From positions 1 through 26,623 of IMG/VR virus record IMGVR_UViG_3300045250_000014: 26,623 nucleotides of DNA. One strand, 5' to 3'. The notes beneath the pieces are model-generated. The model did no database searches. It was not told the origin of the DNA and saw nothing but the letters and a program-made list of their open reading frames with translations. Each line of letters starts with the position of its first letter. Position 1 is the stretch's first letter. Both the position numbers and the translations under genes were made by a program. This stretch comes from a virus. Its lineage: Duplodnaviria; Caudoviricetes. Below, piece after piece: positions 591 to 18,120 of this stretch.

Positions 591-1148
591 TCAGGCGGGC
601 TCGTCGCTCCCCGTGTCCTGAGACTCGTCCTCCGGGCTCGGAAGGGACGCGTCCCGCCGCTCAGAGTCCGTCATCCCTCCCTGCTTGTACGCCGCCAAGT
701 CCATGGACGACTGGTCGTCATGCTCGACCACAGACCCCTCCGCGGGCTCCGGGTCAGCCGCCGCGTCTGCCTCGGTGGGCGACGACTCCCATTCTTTGGC
801 CAGGTGAGCAGCTTGCATGACGAATGCGCGCAACTCCGGGGACAGGAGCTTCCCGTCATGGATGACTAGATCGTTGTCGCCGTGCGTGCCCGATGTTTGC
901 ACGTCGATCCCACGGTCCCGAGCGGCCGCAAGGACCACTTCGGAGATCGGGACCCCCATCCCCGCAGCGAGCCCTTCGATGGTCTCCTTGGTCGGGAAAG
1001 CCTTCAGCTCGCCGCGAGAAAGCATCGTATAGAGGCGCTGTGGAGGAATGCGGCCACCCGAGCGACGGGCGATGTCTGCTGGCTTAATGGCCGGCTTGAG
1101 GGATTCGATCATATGGATCAGGCCGCCTGGCCTTGCTTTGTTCGTCAT
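591..1148 (-). CDS. Immunity repressor, XRE-type HTH
   Basis: ADIARRSGG...PTKETIEGLAAGMGVPISEV; divergent from the Cro-like gene, upstream of the ImmA-like gene; acidic tail containing DLAAY. Confidence 0.85.
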   Translation of the reverse strand: MTNKARPGGLIHMIESLKPAIKPADIARRSGGRIPPQRLYTMLSRGELKAFPTKETIEGLAAGMGVPISEVVLAAARDRGIDVQTSGTHGDNDLVIHDGKLLSPELRAFVMQAAHLAKEWESSPTEADAAADPEPAEGSVVEHDDQSSMDLAAYKQGGMTDSERRDASLPSPEDESQDTGSDEPA

Positions 1149-1201: not shown

Positions 1202-1398
1202 ATGTCTACCGCATTTGGAGCAGAAGACCGTGCGACCTGTCTACCAGAGAGTCTAGAAGATTCCGGGCATCCGCAGCAGTAGGCGTGAAACACGCAACCT
1301 GTCTGTCGGACATCCATGTCTATCTGGCAGTTGACACAACACCACTGGTAGACATATGCTCATGTCTACCAGGCAGTTTCGAACCAACCACCAGACAG
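1202..1398. promoter_or_regulatory. Operator cluster of the lysis/lysogeny switch, consensus (A/C)TGTCT-NNN-AGACA(G/T)
   Basis: Full or half sites at 1202, 1237, 1299, 1316, 1341, 1362, 1384; perfect 11-bp inverted repeat 1345-1355 / 1362-1372. Confidence 0.8.
1331..1360 (+). promoter_or_regulatory. Early lytic promoter (SigA type)
   Basis: TTGACA-N18-TATGCT upstream of the Cro-like gene, overlapped by operators. Confidence 0.8.
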
Positions 1399-1407
1399 GA
1401 ATCTCCA

Positions 1408-1698
1408 ATGGTCGTCAGACGAATCAAGCGCTACTGGAAGGAGGGGACCTACATGCATATGCGATCCCCCGACACATTCAAGGCGTTCATGGCTCTCCGC
1501 AACGTCACGGTCCGCGAACTCGCAGACATGGCCAAGTGCTCGCCCGCCATGATCGGCCACCTCCGTACCGGCTACAAGGTCGAACACGGACCAGACCTCG
1601 CCGAGCGAATCGCTGGGGCTCTCCGCTGCCGAGTGGAAGACCTTTACGAAATCAGCAACGACAAAGACCGGACCTACTTCGAGGACGTGGCGGCATGA
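1408..1698 (+). CDS. Cro-like XRE HTH protein
   Basis: TVRELADMAKCSPAMIGHLRTG...LAERIAGALRCRVEDLY; AGGA RBS before ATG 1408. Confidence 0.85.
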   Translation: MVVRRIKRYWKEGTYMHMRSPDTFKAFMALRNVTVRELADMAKCSPAMIGHLRTGYKVEHGPDLAERIAGALRCRVEDLYEISNDKDRTYFEDVAA

Positions 1699-2188: not shown

Positions 2189-2205
2189 CCCAAGAAGGAA
2201 CCACC

Positions 2206-4620: not shown

Positions 4621-4643
4621 TACTCACTCGGAAGGAACCACCC

Positions 4644-6399: not shown

Positions 6400-6626
6400 G
6401 CCGCCACCGTGACCCGTCTGCGTCGATCACGTGCCGGAACATCGTCTCCTCTGCACCTGACTGCACGGTCTGCCACAAGGCCGCCTACCCCACCAAGCAG
6501 GCTGCAAGGGACGCGTACAACTACATCCACGACCCGGACGCCCCGCACCGCTTCTACGAGTGCCCCAGTGGCGCGTGGCATTGGACGTCCCAGATCACCC
6601 GCCCCAAGACAGGAACCATCAAATGA
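6396..6626 (+). CDS. Small Cys/His (Zn-binding) protein
   Basis: CTVCHKAAY...FYECPSGAWHWTS. Confidence 0.75.
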   Translation: MSRHRDPSASITCRNIVSSAPDCTVCHKAAYPTKQAARDAYNYIHDPDAPHRFYECPSGAWHWTSQITRPKTGTIK

Positions 6627-7123
6627 GCCGCAAGTTCTCCCGCATCATCCGCTCCATCTGGAAGGACAACGACTTCCGGGGCCTCACCCCCGAAGCGCAG
6701 CACCTCTACTTCGTGCTCATCTCCGACCCGAAGCTCACCTACGCTGGCGTCACCGACTGGCGGCCAGAGAAGATCAGTGGTCGCGCCAACGGGTGGACCG
6801 CCGACCAAGTCGCACAGGCTGGGCACGAACTCGCCAACGCACTCTTCATCGTCATCGACGACGACACCGAGGAAGTCTTGATCAGGACGTTCCACCGCAA
6901 CGACGAATGCCTGTCCGTCCCCAACATGTCCCGCGCCGTCATCGACGCCTACGAGACCGTCGAGTCACCCACCATCAGCGGAGTCATCATCCACGAACTC
7001 ACCCGCCTCCACGAGCAGCAACCCAGCCTCCCCGGCTGGAACAACATCGGCACCTTCCTCAACGACTACCAAGCCATCGACCCCGGCACGCTCACACCCG
7101 AACCAGCTGGCGCACCCTTCTGA
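6623..7123 (+). CDS. Replication initiator-like protein, short form
   Basis: SIWKDNDFRGLTPEAQHLYFVL...YAGVTDWRP resembles the N-terminal domain of actinophage replication initiators; AGGAACC RBS. Confidence 0.7.
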   Translation: MSRKFSRIIRSIWKDNDFRGLTPEAQHLYFVLISDPKLTYAGVTDWRPEKISGRANGWTADQVAQAGHELANALFIVIDDDTEEVLIRTFHRNDECLSVPNMSRAVIDAYETVESPTISGVIIHELTRLHEQQPSLPGWNNIGTFLNDYQAIDPGTLTPEPAGAPF

Positions 7124-7139
7124 ACCTTCGAGAACGCGA

Positions 7140-7175
7140 AAGCCCCGTCACCATGAGGTGGCGGGGCTTCTTCAT
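7140..7175 (+). terminator. Intrinsic terminator
   Basis: AAGCCCCGTCACC-ATGA-GGTGGCGGGGCTT-CTTCAT. Confidence 0.75.
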
Positions 7176-7329
7176 CTGGTCCGAACCGTGTAGCCTACGC
7201 ATAGAGGTTGCTACGCATGCCGCGCACGGATCGAGAATCCGAGTGCAGCGAGTTGCAACTTCACTGTAATTCCAGGGCACGCGGGGACCGCGCAAGCCCT
7301 ACGTCATCACTCGACCAGAAGGGCATCAC

Positions 7330-8337
7330 ATGGCTACGCATAGCGACGAATCGCCAAGTAAAGCAGTATCCGGCGCCAAGGGAGGAACCCACCGAGCGCA
7401 ACTCATGACCCCCGAAGAGCGCAGCGAATCGGCACGCAAGGCTGCCGAGGTCCGCTGGGGGAAGAAGACCCCCATCTCCGAGTACGCAGGAGACCTCACC
7501 ATCGGAGACATGACTCTCGACTGCGCCGTCCTCCCCGATGGCCGGCGCATCATCACACAGAAGTCGATCATGACCGCACTCGGACGATCCGAGAGTCAAG
7601 GCCGACGCGTCCGCAACGACAACCGGCCACCGTTCCTCGAAGCCAACAATCTCACCCCGTACATCAGCCCCGAACTCAAGGAGATGATGAACAAGGTCGA
7701 GTACCGCATCAAGGGCGAGAAGACCGTCCGGACCGGATACCCGGCCGAGATCATCCCCGAGGTCTGCGAGGTATACCTTGATGCCCGCCTAGACGATGCC
7801 CTGATCCACAACCAGAAGCCTGCGGCGGAAGCTGCCGAGATCCTGGTGCGCGGCCTCGCCCGAGTCGGGATCACCGCGCTCATTGATGAAGCCACCGGCT
7901 ACCAGGAGAAGCGCGCAGAGGACGAACTGCGCCGTCTGCTCGAGCAGTACGTCTCCGAAGAACACCGCCCCTGGATGAAGCGCTTCCCCCAGAAGTTCTT
8001 CAAGGAGGTCTACAAGATCCACGGATGGAAGTTCCTCCCCAACCAGCACCAACACCCCGGCTACGTCGGCAAGTTCATCAACCGCACCGTCTATGAGCAG
8101 ATGCCCGAAGGGATCCTGGACGGGCTCCGCGAAGTCAATCCTTCCAACGCCTCCGGCAACCGCTCGCGTCGCCACCACCAGCACATCCGTGACGGGCAAC
8201 CATCTGAGCACCTGGACGACCAGATCAAGACGATCATCGTCCTGATGGAACTCTCCGACAACAAGGAGGAGTTCTGGCGGTTGTTCCAGAAGAAGTACAA
8301 GGGGCAGCCGGAGCTCGACCTTCAGTTCGACGACTGA
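7330..8337 (+). CDS. P63C-domain protein (antirepressor-like)
   Basis: AKGG..RA..MTPEERSESARKAAEVRW, CAVLPDGRR, GITALIDEATGYQ, PWMKRFP, HHQ motifs. Confidence 0.88.
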   Translation: MATHSDESPSKAVSGAKGGTHRAQLMTPEERSESARKAAEVRWGKKTPISEYAGDLTIGDMTLDCAVLPDGRRIITQKSIMTALGRSESQGRRVRNDNRPPFLEANNLTPYISPELKEMMNKVEYRIKGEKTVRTGYPAEIIPEVCEVYLDARLDDALIHNQKPAAEAAEILVRGLARVGITALIDEATGYQEKRAEDELRRLLEQYVSEEHRPWMKRFPQKFFKEVYKIHGWKFLPNQHQHPGYVGKFINRTVYEQMPEGILDGLREVNPSNASGNRSRRHHQHIRDGQPSEHLDDQIKTIIVLMELSDNKEEFWRLFQKKYKGQPELDLQFDD

Positions 8338-8804: not shown

Positions 8805-8825
8805 AATCCCAGGAGGAACCACCAG

Positions 8826-9230: not shown

Positions 9231-9365
9231 GGCGGCAACAGTGTTATTTGCCCGCCTCCCGGACGAAAACACCGAACACGCGTACTCGGACACCCAAACA
9301 ATCCCAGACCCGCAAAACGGCACACAGCCGAAGCGCGCCACACACCACCAAAAAAGGAACCACCC

Positions 9366-11389: not shown

Positions 11390-11610
11390 CTCCCCCGTTC
11401 ACGGCAGAGCAGGCCCTCGAATGGGCGCGTGAGGACGTGGAGGCGCAGGTGTCTGGCGCCAACGCCCACTCTGAGCGCGACGAAGGCCTACATGAAGCCA
11501 CCCGCATCCTTAACCGCTGGATCAAGCGCGTGCAGGACACCAAGCCGAAGCAGGTCATGCGACGTGAGGCAGACATCCACCGTGTCAGCCGGAAGGACGC
11601 CGACCTATGA
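11386..11610 (+). CDS. Hypothetical protein
   Basis: AAGGAGG RBS. Confidence 0.7.
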   Translation: MTPPFTAEQALEWAREDVEAQVSGANAHSERDEGLHEATRILNRWIKRVQDTKPKQVMRREADIHRVSRKDADL

Positions 11611-12857: not shown

Positions 12858-12889
12858 CCGAACATCACTCGCACCCGAAGGAACCACCA

Positions 12890-13192
12890 GTGACTGAATC
12901 AACCCCTGCCCCCGTCAACCCTGGCGAGAGCGCCAACACCGCTCCCGGAGTCGGCATCATCGCTACCGGTTGGACCCTGTCCGCATTCTTCGCCGTCATC
13001 GCGATCATCACGCTCTTCGTCAACCTCACCAACGGCAACGGCTACCTGGACAACGCCGCCGGAGACCTCGCCACCACCAAGGCACTCACCTACGCGGTCA
13101 TCTGGGCCGTGCTCAGCGTGACAGCAGCACTCCTTGCACTCTCCGGACACATCCGCGCCGGGTTCGCCAAGCTCGCCGAGGCCGACAAATGA
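12890..13192 (+). CDS. Two-TM membrane protein
   Basis: Two long hydrophobic segments; GAAGGAACCACCA-GTG. Confidence 0.75.
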   Translation: MTESTPAPVNPGESANTAPGVGIIATGWTLSAFFAVIAIITLFVNLTNGNGYLDNAAGDLATTKALTYAVIWAVLSVTAALLALSGHIRAGFAKLAEADK

Positions 13193-14121: not shown

Positions 14122-14152
14122 CTTGAGTTGTCTTTCAGTAAGGAACCACCAC

Positions 14153-14320
14153 ATGATCGGCACCCTGAACCCCGCCGCCGACGCCCGCACCGGCATCTAC
14201 GCCGATCCGGAACCCGGCACCCCCGACTGCGACACCTGCTACCTCGCCGGCCACCAGTGCGAGACCTGCTCCGGGGCCGCCGAATACGACCAGTCCCCCG
14301 CCGCACTCTTCACCCGATAG
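14153..14320 (+). CDS. Small CxxC-CxxC protein
   Basis: AAGGAACCACCAC-ATG; CDTC...CETC. Confidence 0.7.
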   Translation: MIGTLNPAADARTGIYADPEPGTPDCDTCYLAGHQCETCSGAAEYDQSPAALFTR

Positions 14321-14328
14321 GAACCACC

Positions 14329-14758: not shown

Positions 14759-15000
14759 CGTTGCGGGCCTGTGACCTCACCGCTGGCCACATCGGCCAGC
14801 GAGCCGAAATCCGGTGCGACAACTTCGGTGCGACAGGTGTCCTCGTCGGTGTTGTCGGCTACGCCACCAGCCGCGCCGTCGTCCTGCACCTCGCAGACTC
14901 CGGCGCATCCGCAACCTGCACAGTCCCCTGGAACGCAGACGTGACCCTCGGCGACCCGGAAGCGTCCGGCATCGGCTGGTGCGAGGAAGGTGTCGCATGA
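14755..15000 (+). CDS. Hypothetical protein
   Basis: MTLRACDLTAGHIG...; ATGA overlaps. Confidence 0.7.
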   Translation: MTLRACDLTAGHIGQRAEIRCDNFGATGVLVGVVGYATSRAVVLHLADSGASATCTVPWNADVTLGDPEASGIGWCEEGVA

Positions 15001-15710
15001 CCACGTGCACCAACTCGCAATCCTGCCAGCAGGAGACGGCGCCGGGCATGTACCTGTGCCGGGAGTGCGTGAAGCGGCTGTCTCGCCTGATCGGTGAGGC
15101 TGAGCACCTGCTCGTGCTGGCCGGGCATGCGATCTCGAAGCAGGGCTCCAATAGGTCGGCCGGGGGATCATCGGCCTCCGTGTCGTCGGCCCCGATGAAC
15201 CTGGACGCGATGACCTGGCGCGACGCCGTAGCCCGCTGCCTGGACGTGAACGGTTTGGCGGACGCCCGCCAAGACCCGGACCGCCGGGCCTGGGACGCCG
15301 CCCGCTCCGGGAATGCCGGGTATGTGATCGCGGACCTCGACTACAAGGTCGGGCGGCTCACCCGGATCGTGGACCTGCCCGTGGAGCGGCGCAGACTGGC
15401 CGCGTGCGGGGTCGAGGGCTGCACAGGCTCCTACCTCTACACGGACGGTGCCAGCATCGCCACCTGCACCATGTGCCGGGCGACGATGGACATCCACACC
15501 TACCGGGCATGGCAGCTCAACCAGGCGACAGGGACACCCCTGCCGCTCGCCCGCCTCTGCCGTGTCCTATCCAAGGCCGGGGTGAGGGTGAACCCAGCTA
15601 CCGCCCGCAAGTGGGTGGAACGCGGGAAACTCGCCCCCGACAGCATGGACAGCAAGGGCCGAGCCTTGTATACCGCAGATCAAGTCCTCAACCTTGCGAG
15701 TGCAGCATGA
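14997..15710 (+). CDS. Zn-finger/HTH protein, probable late transcription regulator
   Basis: Four Cys pairs; C-terminal PATARKWVERGKL...LY MerR-like HTH; last early gene before the late promoter. Confidence 0.7.
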   Translation: MTTCTNSQSCQQETAPGMYLCRECVKRLSRLIGEAEHLLVLAGHAISKQGSNRSAGGSSASVSSAPMNLDAMTWRDAVARCLDVNGLADARQDPDRRAWDAARSGNAGYVIADLDYKVGRLTRIVDLPVERRRLAACGVEGCTGSYLYTDGASIATCTMCRATMDIHTYRAWQLNQATGTPLPLARLCRVLSKAGVRVNPATARKWVERGKLAPDSMDSKGRALYTADQVLNLASAA

Positions 15711-15730
15711 CGACACGCCGCGCCGAATAC

Positions 15731-15760
15731 TTGCGCGAGCACACTTGTGTCACATATTCT
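15731..15760 (+). promoter_or_regulatory. Probable late promoter
   Basis: TTGCGC-N18-TATTCT with a TGTG-T-CACA palindrome next to the -10. Confidence 0.6.
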
Positions 15761-15763
15761 GTT

Positions 15764-16040
15764 CACAGAATGGCAGTCGTGTCCCCAGAGGACTGACTGC
15801 CTTCTGTGCAAGTGGCCGGGTTGAGCGCGCTGGTGGTTGGTTCCTTCGGGTGGCGCTCCCCGGCCACACCCATACCCGCCGTGCCACCTGACGACAGTCG
15901 CCACCTTCCACGACTGAGAAACGCCCGGCACGGCACATCAACGTGACGGACCCCGGCTCAACCTCTACATGAACACCCGGGCGAGAACGTCACCAGCCCC
16001 GGCGCGGACCGCTGACACAACTCCCGGCCCGCACCGGGGC
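15764..16040 (+). ncRNA. Five-hairpin structured late leader / sRNA array
   Basis: Consecutive stems 15764-15808, 15812-15867, 15878-15934, 15943-15993, 15996-16040; no credible CDS. Confidence 0.65.
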
Positions 16041-16116
16041 CACCAAGCCGCCTCTCCAATCGGCAGGACCCCGGAGCGCGCACCGGAAGATCGTGGTTCG
16101 AATCCACGGGTGGCCA
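16038..16116 (+). tRNA. tRNA-like element (pseudo-tRNA, anticodon not assignable)
   Basis: Perfect GGCCACC/GGTGGCC-A acceptor and CGTGG-TTCGAAT-CCACG T arm; irregular D and anticodon regions. Confidence 0.65.
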
Positions 16117-16130
16117 CGCTTCACAGATAG

Positions 16131-16334
16131 TTAGTTCTCGACAGCCAGATACAACCCTTCATACCGAACGCCATTGGCAGAGGGCACCCTGGACTTATAC
16201 TTCGCGACGTATACGATGCCGTCGTTTGTGGGGTATCGCTTCTGCTCAAGTTCCCCGTCGTCGCCAAACTTCACCGGCCACTCCTGCCCGGCAAGGGGCC
16301 CGTCTTTCACTTTCACCATCGCGATAGCACTCAT
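16131..16334 (-). CDS. Small hypothetical moron protein, probably leaderless
   Basis: Lower GC; VKDGPLAG motif; TAGGCT -10 at 16347-16342, 7 nt before the ATG. Confidence 0.65.
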   Translation of the reverse strand: MSAIAMVKVKDGPLAGQEWPVKFGDDGELEQKRYPTNDGIVYVAKYKSRVPSANGVRYEGLYLAVEN

Positions 16335-16399
16335 GCGGAATAGCCTACCGACCACTCACGCCCAGGCGGTGTGACCAACCGGCACGCCCAGGAGGCGCA

Positions 16400-16837
16400 A
16401 TGCCACCCACGAAATACTCCGAGGAGGAGAAACAGGCCGCACTCAAGGCCTACGAAGAGCACGGCGGAGCGAAGGCCGCCAAGCAGACCGGGATCCCCGC
16501 ATCGACCATCCGCAAGTGGGCCGGGAAGTCGGGGGTTCAGTCCAACGCCATCGACGTCATGGCCAACGCCAATGAGGCCCGACGCGTCAACCTCGCGAAC
16601 TCGCGTTCCCTCATCGAAACGGACTCCCTGTCCCTCGCCGAGAAACTCCTCGCCGAGATGCACCGACGCATCAACGAACAAGCCGACCTGATCGCCGCCG
16701 ACGACCTCAACCGCATGTTCGGCACCGCCGTCGACAAAGCCATCGCGCTCGCCAAACTGAACGATGACCACGGCGCATCCGCCGCACGATCCATGCTCGA
16801 CCGGATCGCAGAACAGATCGGCGTCCCCAACGAATAG
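16400..16837 (+). CDS. Terminase small subunit
   Basis: N-terminal HTH (AAKQTGIPASTIRKW); directly upstream of the large subunit; AGGAGG RBS. Confidence 0.8.
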   Translation: MPPTKYSEEEKQAALKAYEEHGGAKAAKQTGIPASTIRKWAGKSGVQSNAIDVMANANEARRVNLANSRSLIETDSLSLAEKLLAEMHRRINEQADLIAADDLNRMFGTAVDKAIALAKLNDDHGASAARSMLDRIAEQIGVPNE

Positions 16838-16848
16838 AGGAGGTGGCC

Positions 16849-18120
16849 GTGACCGCTCTCGCTGACGCCGTCACAGCCGTCTCCCCAAAGCAGCTCGACT
16901 TCCTCCGCAACTCCACCGCCCGCGTCAACATGACAGACGGCGCGATCCGTTCCGGCAAGACCGTCATCACGCTCACCCGCTGGCTGTTCTACGTCGCACG
17001 CGCACCCAGGGGCGGCGAACTCGTCATGATCGGCCGCACCCGCGACAGCGTGTGGCGCAACTGCATCAACCCCCTGCAGAACCCCGACCTATTCGGAGAC
17101 CTCGCAGAGCAGATCATCGGCAACCATGGCGCACCCACCGTCACCATCCTCGGCCGCCGCGTCCACATCCTTGGCGCCAGTGACGCCAAAGCGGAGAAGG
17201 TCATCCGAGGCATGACCGTCGCCGGCGCCTTCGTCGACGAGGTCACCGTCATCCCAGAAGAGTTCTTCACGCAGCTCCTGGGCCGCATGTCCGTTGCCGG
17301 CGCGAAACTCTTCGGATCCACCAACCCTGATAGTCCAGCCCACTGGCTCAAGGCGAAGTTCCTCGACCGCCTCGACGACCTGTCCGACTGGCGACACTGG
17401 CACTTCACCATCGACGACAACCCATCCCTCACCGAAGCGTACAAGAACTCCATCAAGACCGAGTTCACCGGCATGTGGTTCCGCCGCTTCATCCAGGGCG
17501 AATGGGTGGCCGCCGAGGGCGCCATCTACCCCATGTGGGATCCAGAACGGCACGTGATCAACCCGGACGAACTGCCACCCATGCAAGACGTCCTCGCAGT
17601 CGGACTGGACTACGGAACCCAGAACGCCACCGCCGCACTCCTACTCGGCCTCGGCGTCGACGGGATCCTCTACTTCCTCGACGAGTGGGTGTACTCCGGC
17701 AGGGACACGCACCGGCCACTCACTGACTCAAGCCTCGCCGACCACCTCGAAGCGTGGATGGACGCCTGCCGGCAGGAATGGCAGCGGCCCCGGCTGATCC
17801 TCGTGGACCCGTCCGCAGCATCGTTCCGCACCGAACTGCAAGCGCGGGGAGTGCCGACCACTGCCGCTGACAACGACGTCCTATACGGCCTGCGGACCAT
17901 GGCGTCGCTACTCGGCCAAGGCGTCCTCAAAATCTCATCCAAGTGCAAGGGCCTGATCAACGAGATCCCCGGCTACTGCTGGGACGACAAGGCAGCAGAG
18001 AAGGGCGAGGACAAGCCCGTGAAAGTCGCCGACCACTCGTGCGACGCGGCCAGGTATTGCCTGGTCACCACTGAAACCTACTGGTCTACCCGCGTGAGGA
18101 GGAACCGTGCCGCTGCCTGA
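16849..18120 (+). CDS. Terminase large subunit (PBSX/SPP1-like)
   Basis: GAIRSGKT Walker A, AFVDE Walker B, STNP, DYG, DPSA, DHSCDA.RY; start 16849 or 16843. Confidence 0.95.
   Translation: MTALADAVTAVSPKQLDFLRNSTARVNMTDGAIRSGKTVITLTRWLFYVARAPRGGELVMIGRTRDSVWRNCINPLQNPDLFGDLAEQIIGNHGAPTVTILGRRVHILGASDAKAEKVIRGMTVAGAFVDEVTVIPEEFFTQLLGRMSVAGAKLFGSTNPDSPAHWLKAKFLDRLDDLSDWRHWHFTIDDNPSLTEAYKNSIKTEFTGMWFRRFIQGEWVAAEGAIYPMWDPERHVINPDELPPMQDVLAVGLDYGTQNATAALLLGLGVDGILYFLDEWVYSGRDTHRPLTDSSLADHLEAWMDACRQEWQRPRLILVDPSAASFRTELQARGVPTTAADNDVLYGLRTMASLLGQGVLKISSKCKGLINEIPGYCWDDKAAEKGEDKPVKVADHSCDAARYCLVTTETYWSTRVRRNRAAA

Follow-up and report, generated by a model that had tools for sequence, protein, structure and literature searches.

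Small RNAs that pair over a Shine-Dalgarno (SD) sequence and its spacer block ribosome loading. RsaE and RNAIII, with C/U-rich loops in Gram-positive bacteria, and the multi-target RNA GcvB each direct one loop seed to many translation-initiation regions; these RNAs are host encoded and metabolic or virulence related. Among phages, StxS-type RNAs originate from the lambdoid late promoter. The closest arrangement described is that of the start-associated sequence (SAS) motifs of cluster K mycobacteriophages, which were reported in 2011 without an assigned role and with one reversed copy away from gene starts in four K1 phages (Pope 2011, PMC3203893). In the passages on SAS in three papers (PMC3203893; PMC11373665; for cluster EF, PMC7302621), the function is left open and the reversed copy is given no role. 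The corresponding passage of the 2024 Adephagia paper (PMC11373665) still calls the role unknown, and a protein partner for SAS is raised both there and by Pope 2011 (PMC3203893). Our search, which covered the openly available full-text literature, found no late phage RNA directed against a shared early ribosome-binding site (RBS) tag and no explanation of reversed SAS.

Here we analyze a virus DNA of 26.6 kb, referred to throughout as the window, in which the loop of a predicted hairpin (H2) in the late leader is antisense to a tag shared by early RBSs.

Results

Profile searches of the window placed early genes ahead of terminase, portal, head, and tail genes. It is a temperate actinobacterial siphophage, and its nearest named relatives are in Galactobacter. 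Besides the repressor and a cro-like gene (Table 1), the early region encodes excisionase, RecE/RecT, SSB, a replication initiator, and RusA. The product of the last early gene has two CxxC-type motifs and a C-terminal MerR-like HTH (PF13411 below the cut-off); we call it a putative late regulator, a role taken from gene position alone. A gap of 689 nt separates the end of this gene from the first late gene. The replication-initiator-like ORF that begins at 6623 stops at 7123 after about 166 aa, with PHROG profiles being 331 to 446 positions long, and it may be truncated or split (region 7123-7330). Contigs from four of four RNA-labelled runs differ from the window by a 2-base insertion after 11935 and by T>C at 11454, so an assembly error or a variant is possible at these positions. 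Contigs of the four runs cover all 30 bins of 20 kb in a DNA-like manner, and contigs carry neither strand nor level.

Table 1. Coordinates of features in the window; energies are predicted for pairing with the leader RNA
Feature	Position	Strand	Basis
Repressor	591-1148	-	gene annotation
Match to the loop over 14 nt, just upstream of the cro-like gene's SD	1381..1394	+	sequence match
cro-like gene	1408-1698	+	PF13443
AGGAACCA tag before ATG 2206, 40-aa ORF	2196..2203	+	predicted -25.3 kcal/mol
Tag before ATG 4644	4633..4640	+	predicted -15.4 kcal/mol
Tag before ATG 6623, replication initiation protein	6611..6618	+	predicted -11.2 kcal/mol
Tag before ATG 8826	8814..8821	+	predicted -13.7 kcal/mol
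Tag before ATG 9366	9355..9362	+	predicted -20.2 kcal/mol
Best target: match of 15 nt (exact) or 19 nt (bulged), ending at GTG 12890	12872..12890	+	predicted -24.4 kcal/mol
Tag before ATG 14153	14141..14148	+	predicted -12.7 kcal/mol
Tag with extended match before ATG 14329	14311..14326	+	predicted -24.3 kcal/mol
Putative late regulator, 237 aa, last early gene	14997..15710	+	phrog_908, phrog_2474
Putative late promoter TTGCGC-18 nt-TATTCT	15731..15760	+	by eye; relatives aligned
Hairpin H1, inferred 5' end of late transcript	15765..15807	+	fold z -5.67
Hairpin H2	15812..15867	+	fold -35.8 kcal/mol, z -3.67
Antisense loop, seed TGGTTCCTTC + TGGT extension	15829..15852	+	match to tag
Hairpin H3	15878..15934	+	fold z -3.12; not conserved in G001
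Degenerate tRNA-like cloverleaf	16038..16116	+	fold, z -0.37; weak blastn to phage tRNA-Gln
67-aa ORF inside late leader	16131-16334	-	no PHROG match; absent in G001
First late gene, putative terminase small subunit	16400..16837	+	position; then terminase large subunit, portal, head/tail

The leader consists, in order, of the candidate promoter, H1, H2, H3, the cloverleaf, and the minus-strand ORF. Only the promoter, the position of H1, and H2 are kept in G001, a Galactobacter prophage whose regulator is 78% identical to that of the window. Both promoter hexamers are identical in G001, and alignment gives TGGACA-17-TAGATT as the counterpart in a second relative, G006; a consensus promoter scan did not report the site. 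RNA synthesis would start at about 15765, the first base of H1, a position at which G001 and G006 also hold a hairpin of different sequence. A second promoter-like sequence, TTGGCA-16-TATACT, lies on the + strand at 16174-16201, within the minus-strand ORF. The cloverleaf has intact acceptor and T arms, a D arm, and a non-standard anticodon arm; it is absent in G001, and neither ARAGORN nor Rfam made a call on it. Real tRNAs occupy comparable leader positions in three other loci (L038, L047, and L048), and in L020-L023, L047-L050, and L133 (Glutamicibacter/Arthrobacter type) tRNAs follow a recurring structured motif, GACCGGC..., AATAGCCCC..CACGAG..GGGGAGC.

H2 is built of a lower stem (GTGGCCGGG/CCCGGCCAC), a 2-nt bulge, an upper stem (GAGCGC/GCGCTC), and a 24-nt loop, and the reverse complement of 15830-15852 is CACCCGAAGGAACCAACCACCAG. 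The wider stretch 15780-15900 folds with a z of only -0.92. The loop is partly closed by weak internal pairing in ViennaRNA folds, and 3.4 to 5.6 kcal/mol are needed to open the seed. H2 stays intact in folds up to 16120 (3.4 to 5.7 kcal/mol for the seed) and is disrupted in the fold of the whole 636-nt leader, where seed opening costs 5.5 to 8.7 kcal/mol. A sequence scan of the leader found no U-tail terminator after H2. Rfam gave no match in the window at gathering score and one chance-level match in 15650-16450 at E <= 5, and blastn of the leader against annotated phages returned only the weak tRNA-Gln matches. Exact scans of viral contigs with the seed and with the scaffold yielded only near-identical copies of the window phage or unrelated contexts; a metagenome scan gave one distant locus.

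The tag AGGAACCA occurs eight times on the + strand (2196, 4633, 6611, 8814, 9355, 12879, 14141, and 14319), each copy beginning 10 to 12 nt before an early ATG or GTG, and its sole minus-strand copy is the H2 loop. These nine occurrences on both strands compare with 0.70 +/- 0.83 expected, and none of 100 shuffles reached nine. By called starts, the tag precedes 8 of 31 early and 0 of 14 late ones. The first-pass annotation had placed the core at early RBSs, as we find, although it counted seven copies. Its individual matches were recovered from the sequence: an exact 15-nt match to the loop at 12872-12886, extended to 19 nt by one 4-nt bulge so that the last base is the G of GTG 12890; the exact match in the cro leader; and the match ahead of ATG 14329, whose single insertion is one T. 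It was also right that the minus-strand copy is not itself an RBS, there being no start codon at RBS distance. The longest antisense match of the loop to the early region, 15 nt, compares with a maximum of 14 in 1,000 dinucleotide shuffles, and other 23-nt segments of the late leader reach at most 11 nt.

We scored pairing of RNA 15765-15880 with hand-picked starts (30 early and 14 late, leaving out a wrongly placed start at 7407) by using home-made accessibility-corrected duplex energies. At <= -10 kcal/mol, 12/30 early and 0/14 late starts were matched (Fisher p=0.004), in a comparison that favors any G/U-rich loop, because the early starts are A/C-rich and unstructured. The counts were 9 versus 0 at <= -12 kcal/mol (p=0.02) and 7 versus 0 at <= -14 kcal/mol (p=0.053). 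The 12 starts matched at -10 kcal/mol include those of cro, recT, and each of the eight tagged genes. The strongest energy at a late start was -9.6 kcal/mol, and the portal start at 18107, which carries AGGAACC, reached -6.5 kcal/mol. A scan of the loop against phage starts, suggested earlier as a check, accordingly returned early-only matches at the -10 kcal/mol threshold.

In G001 the paired stem bases of H2 are identical to those of the window. The loop has changed but keeps TGGTGGTTCCTTC, the 13-nt complement of GAAGGAACCACCA, and the tag stands before at least six early starts, that of the cro ortholog among them. The cro gene is matched in both phages in different arrangements, with a 14-nt match just upstream of the SD in the window and a 12-nt match on the SD in G001. 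In the 3.3-Mb G001 genome, which is that of a related host and not of the window's own host, the long tag followed by ATG occurs five times, always within the prophage; the short tag has 34 matches (6 in the prophage) versus 29 for the reversed control and is not enriched. The G006 locus (best HMM E value, 7.8e-55) has a scaffold similar to H2 and a different loop, complementary to AGGAG..CCCCATGAC with two central mismatches, which fits its own AGGAG(A/G)AACCCATG starts. Covariation of loop and motif among relatives, another suggested check, found partial support: G001 keeps stem and seed, and the loops fit each phage's own tag. An H2-like order of stem, TT bulge, GAG ... CTC, and stem was also seen, with very different loop sizes, in L046 (G213), L070 (G039), and L038 (G006); this recurrent scaffold may be a processing or protein-binding feature.

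An unselected test took 51 loci with a regulator homolog. Of these, 45 were kept after removal of two near-duplicates, two loci whose regulator was not the last gene, and two for which called starts numbered below 8. A pair was scored as matching when at least four early starts, from crude SD-based gene calls, had in common an 8-mer antisense to part of the leader's first 450 nt. Matches were found for 5/45 cognate and 13/1980 non-cognate pairs (0/20000 permutations) and, without the window and G001, for 3/43 and 8/1806 (p=0.0009), with kinship ignored in both calculations. The three further cognate loci are G006, L019, and L073, with the tags AGGAG..CCCATGAC, AAGGAGAG, and GAGGAGAT, respectively, and their matches sit in a hairpin 110 to 130 nt after the regulator. 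Eight copies of the L019 tag precede starts, every one of them in the early region; 10 kb of late DNA contains no copy, and a single reversed copy lies in the loop. Leaders with a loop-tag match are not alignable beyond G001 and G006. The remaining 40 of the 45 loci, some of which are perhaps not true orthologs, had no cognate antisense 8-mer at four or more starts, and BV-113 had no cognate antisense match. L087 was rejected as a cognate locus and counted as a non-cognate match: antisense AAGGAACC is present but does not sit in a clean loop, and there is no cognate tag in the 14 starts available. The leaders of L071, L072, and L096 have short hairpins with C/U-rich, anti-SD-like loops and no strong cognate tag.

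When loops were set against starts in a matrix, the cognate cells held 11/31, 5/24, 5/28, 9/22, 7/33, and 14/49 matching starts, and the others at most 4/31. The matrix of guides against phages peaks on the diagonal, except for the tag common to the window and G001. Because its loops were picked partly for their match, the matrix serves as illustration, and the permutation test carries the weight. Late starts matching the phage's own loop numbered 0/11 in G001, 0/13 in L019, and 1/3 in L073. Seed and targets correspond across lineages. Cluster K is the exception, its loop drifting against a fixed SAS.

Adephagia has 16 forward copies of SAS and one reversed copy at 58682. The reversed copy, after which no start codon follows, is the loop CCTCCTATCC of a long hairpin within the gap that separates gene 92 from gene 93, and late + strand transcription starts in this gap according to the RNA-seq passage of PMC11373665. 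The loop matches 14/49 early starts (genes 44-92) and 2/36 late starts, with genes 36-43 left out. The likeness to the window is one of layout, and we compare the K hairpin with H2 without claiming homology. Sequence matching the gap is found in 186 Mycobacterium phage records. A conserved, structured late leader of about 280 nt (L111:29540-29885, Adephagia 58539-58884, and cluster K homologs) follows a TTG..TAGACT promoter-like site and contains the invariant blocks GCTGGTCACC and TGCAG; some records annotate a hypothetical ORF there, and in Nanz197 (L125) an annotated reverse transcriptase gene (59999-61336) lies directly upstream.

The stems of 10 K phages are 91.6% paired, with three compensatory pairs and frequent + strand G-U pairs; this covariation is modest, 25/500 shuffles reaching the same level. 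Of 14 K phages, five (Adephagia, Validus, LastHope, Mdavu, and Nanz197) have an exact anti-SAS as the loop; the loop is partial in five others, lost or altered in three, and absent in TM4. SAS itself is unchanged in all seven non-exact phages checked, with 10 to 18 matches at <=2 mismatches, and the tag is therefore independent of the loop. AnnaSerena has 10 SAS matches and no reversed copy. The primary role of K tags is probably to provide start sites that are strong or depend on a factor, and the loop would exploit these sites.

Discussion

We lean slightly toward reading the H2 transcript as a late trans-acting antisense RNA that damps early translation. The candidate promoter, controlled by the regulator encoded upstream, would make a late RNA carrying H2 in quantity. 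H2 would form in vivo, and the effector would be either the uncut late transcript or a small RNA cleaved out of it. Its loop would seed in trans on the SD and spacer of tagged early mRNAs; the duplex would extend toward the start codon and block 30S/ribosome loading, so that early translation would fall once late transcription begins. We also weighed a step in which RNase P frees the RNA through the tRNA-like element but did not take it to be general, since that element is missing from G001. The first-pass annotation had proposed a late antisense RNA that shuts off many early genes at once, as an early-to-late switch. The late-leader site, the + strand orientation, and the early-only targets in that proposal stand. 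"Shuts off" and "switch" are too strong, because the loop matches only about one-third of early starts, a cognate loop is missing from most relatives, and K tags outlast the loop. The element is probably a fine-tuning brake gained independently by some phage lineages, not an essential switch.

A generic anti-SD loop, resembling the 16S tail, could instead damp or compete for many SDs, those of the host included, or bind a translation factor; the tag match would then follow in part from the strong, stereotyped RBS of the phage. The SD complement does lie within all the seeds, and L071, L072, L096, and five K phages have C/U-rich loops that lack a strong cognate match. We consider this reading unlikely: the match varies from one phage to another and runs into a phage-specific spacer, late starts are passed over even where their SDs are strong, and the G001 host genome shows no enrichment of the short tag. 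If the tag were a site for an RNA- or DNA-binding protein, the reversed copy might be a further site or a minus-strand RNA decoy displaying protein sites in the manner of CsrB. The minus strand of the H2 region folds too (z -4.17) and would display AGGA in its loop, the minus-strand ORF of the leader points toward the hairpin, SAS persists without the loop, and an SAS protein partner has been raised (in the passages on SAS of PMC3203893 and PMC11373665). A protein site nevertheless seems distinctly unlikely, given that the + strand folds better than the minus strand in the window (-63.9 versus -56.3) and in G001 (-62.1 versus -53.4), though hardly in G006; that the minus-strand ORF is absent in G001; that the late + strand of Adephagia is the transcribed one (RNA-seq passage of PMC11373665); that K stems rely on + strand G-U pairs; and that a DNA site needs no loop.

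The patchy distribution would suit a relic with no regulatory effect, in which a structural or processing hairpin has captured either an inverted copy of an early gene start or what was once the start of a minus-strand minigene, now lost. The reversed loop indeed reads as an RBS and ATG in G006 and L073 and is one letter off in G001. We find a relic quite improbable, because the window and G001 share the seed but differ in neighboring loop letters, non-alignable leaders and cluster K repeat the placement with different tags, and no start codon follows the reversed copy in the window or in Adephagia. It is very improbable that the loop works in cis, restraining or timing the first late genes on its own late transcript, or that it activates the tagged genes. 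The first downstream gene of L073 does match its loop, and the portal start of the window carries AGGAACC. The pairing energies at late starts of the window and the absence of loop matches at late starts in G001 and L019 argue against a role in cis, and the predicted pairing covers the SD and spacer.

Returning to the late trans-acting RNA, we raise more tentatively, as a possibility that we do not yet favor, a repeated addressing system of actinophages, in which a private early RBS tag is paired with a late-leader hairpin carrying an exchangeable guide loop. Such an RNA-only early-to-late shut-off would explain the reversed SAS of K1 phages. The late RNA, if real, would likely also explain the puzzling SAS of some mycobacteriophages. 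Confirmation would add a phage timing mechanism, with one late RNA damping many early mRNAs via a common tag, and would offer, for use in actinobacteria, a natural hairpin scaffold whose guide loop can be swapped. The loop-tag layout is cheaply testable in Adephagia, which is cultured and genetically tractable (in M. smegmatis).

The proposed RNA would be an RNA counterpart of T4 RegB, whose role it would fill. RegB is a protein nuclease that cuts GGAG (passage on RegB in PMC3014915), whereas the agent in the window is a predicted RNA acting on the SD and spacer; no RegB-like family was found among 52 ORFs scanned with PHROGs, on a partial contig with many ORFs lacking an assignment. In the C4 antisense RNA of P1 and P7, as in the prediction made here, a loop-displayed seed pairs near an RBS in trans, although C4 controls ant in immunity (passage on C4 in PMC12197685). 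Unlike C4, the proposed window RNA has many early targets, sits in the late leader, and matches no Rfam family. StxS and other lambdoid late-leader RNAs are likewise regulatory small RNAs from a phage late region, but the targets given for StxS are stx1AB and host rpoS (passage on phage small RNAs in PMC12197685). Giles also makes an abundant late small RNA (cited in PMC5488031, in a passage that names no target). Unlike RsaE, RNAIII, and GcvB, the window has seed and targets within one phage, matching per lineage. The cluster K arrangement shares the most specific traits: an over-conserved RBS tag in one orientation at non-structural gene starts (eight early and 0/14 late here), conserved beyond the SD and rare in the host (the long form is 5/5 in the prophage of G001, a related host), and one reversed copy away from starts, which in Adephagia lies within a late-leader hairpin loop. 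Host family differs, and the window tag is the same kind of feature as SAS but not the same motif, because it reads AGGAACCA(CC), shorter than the SAS sequence GGGATAGGAGCCC.
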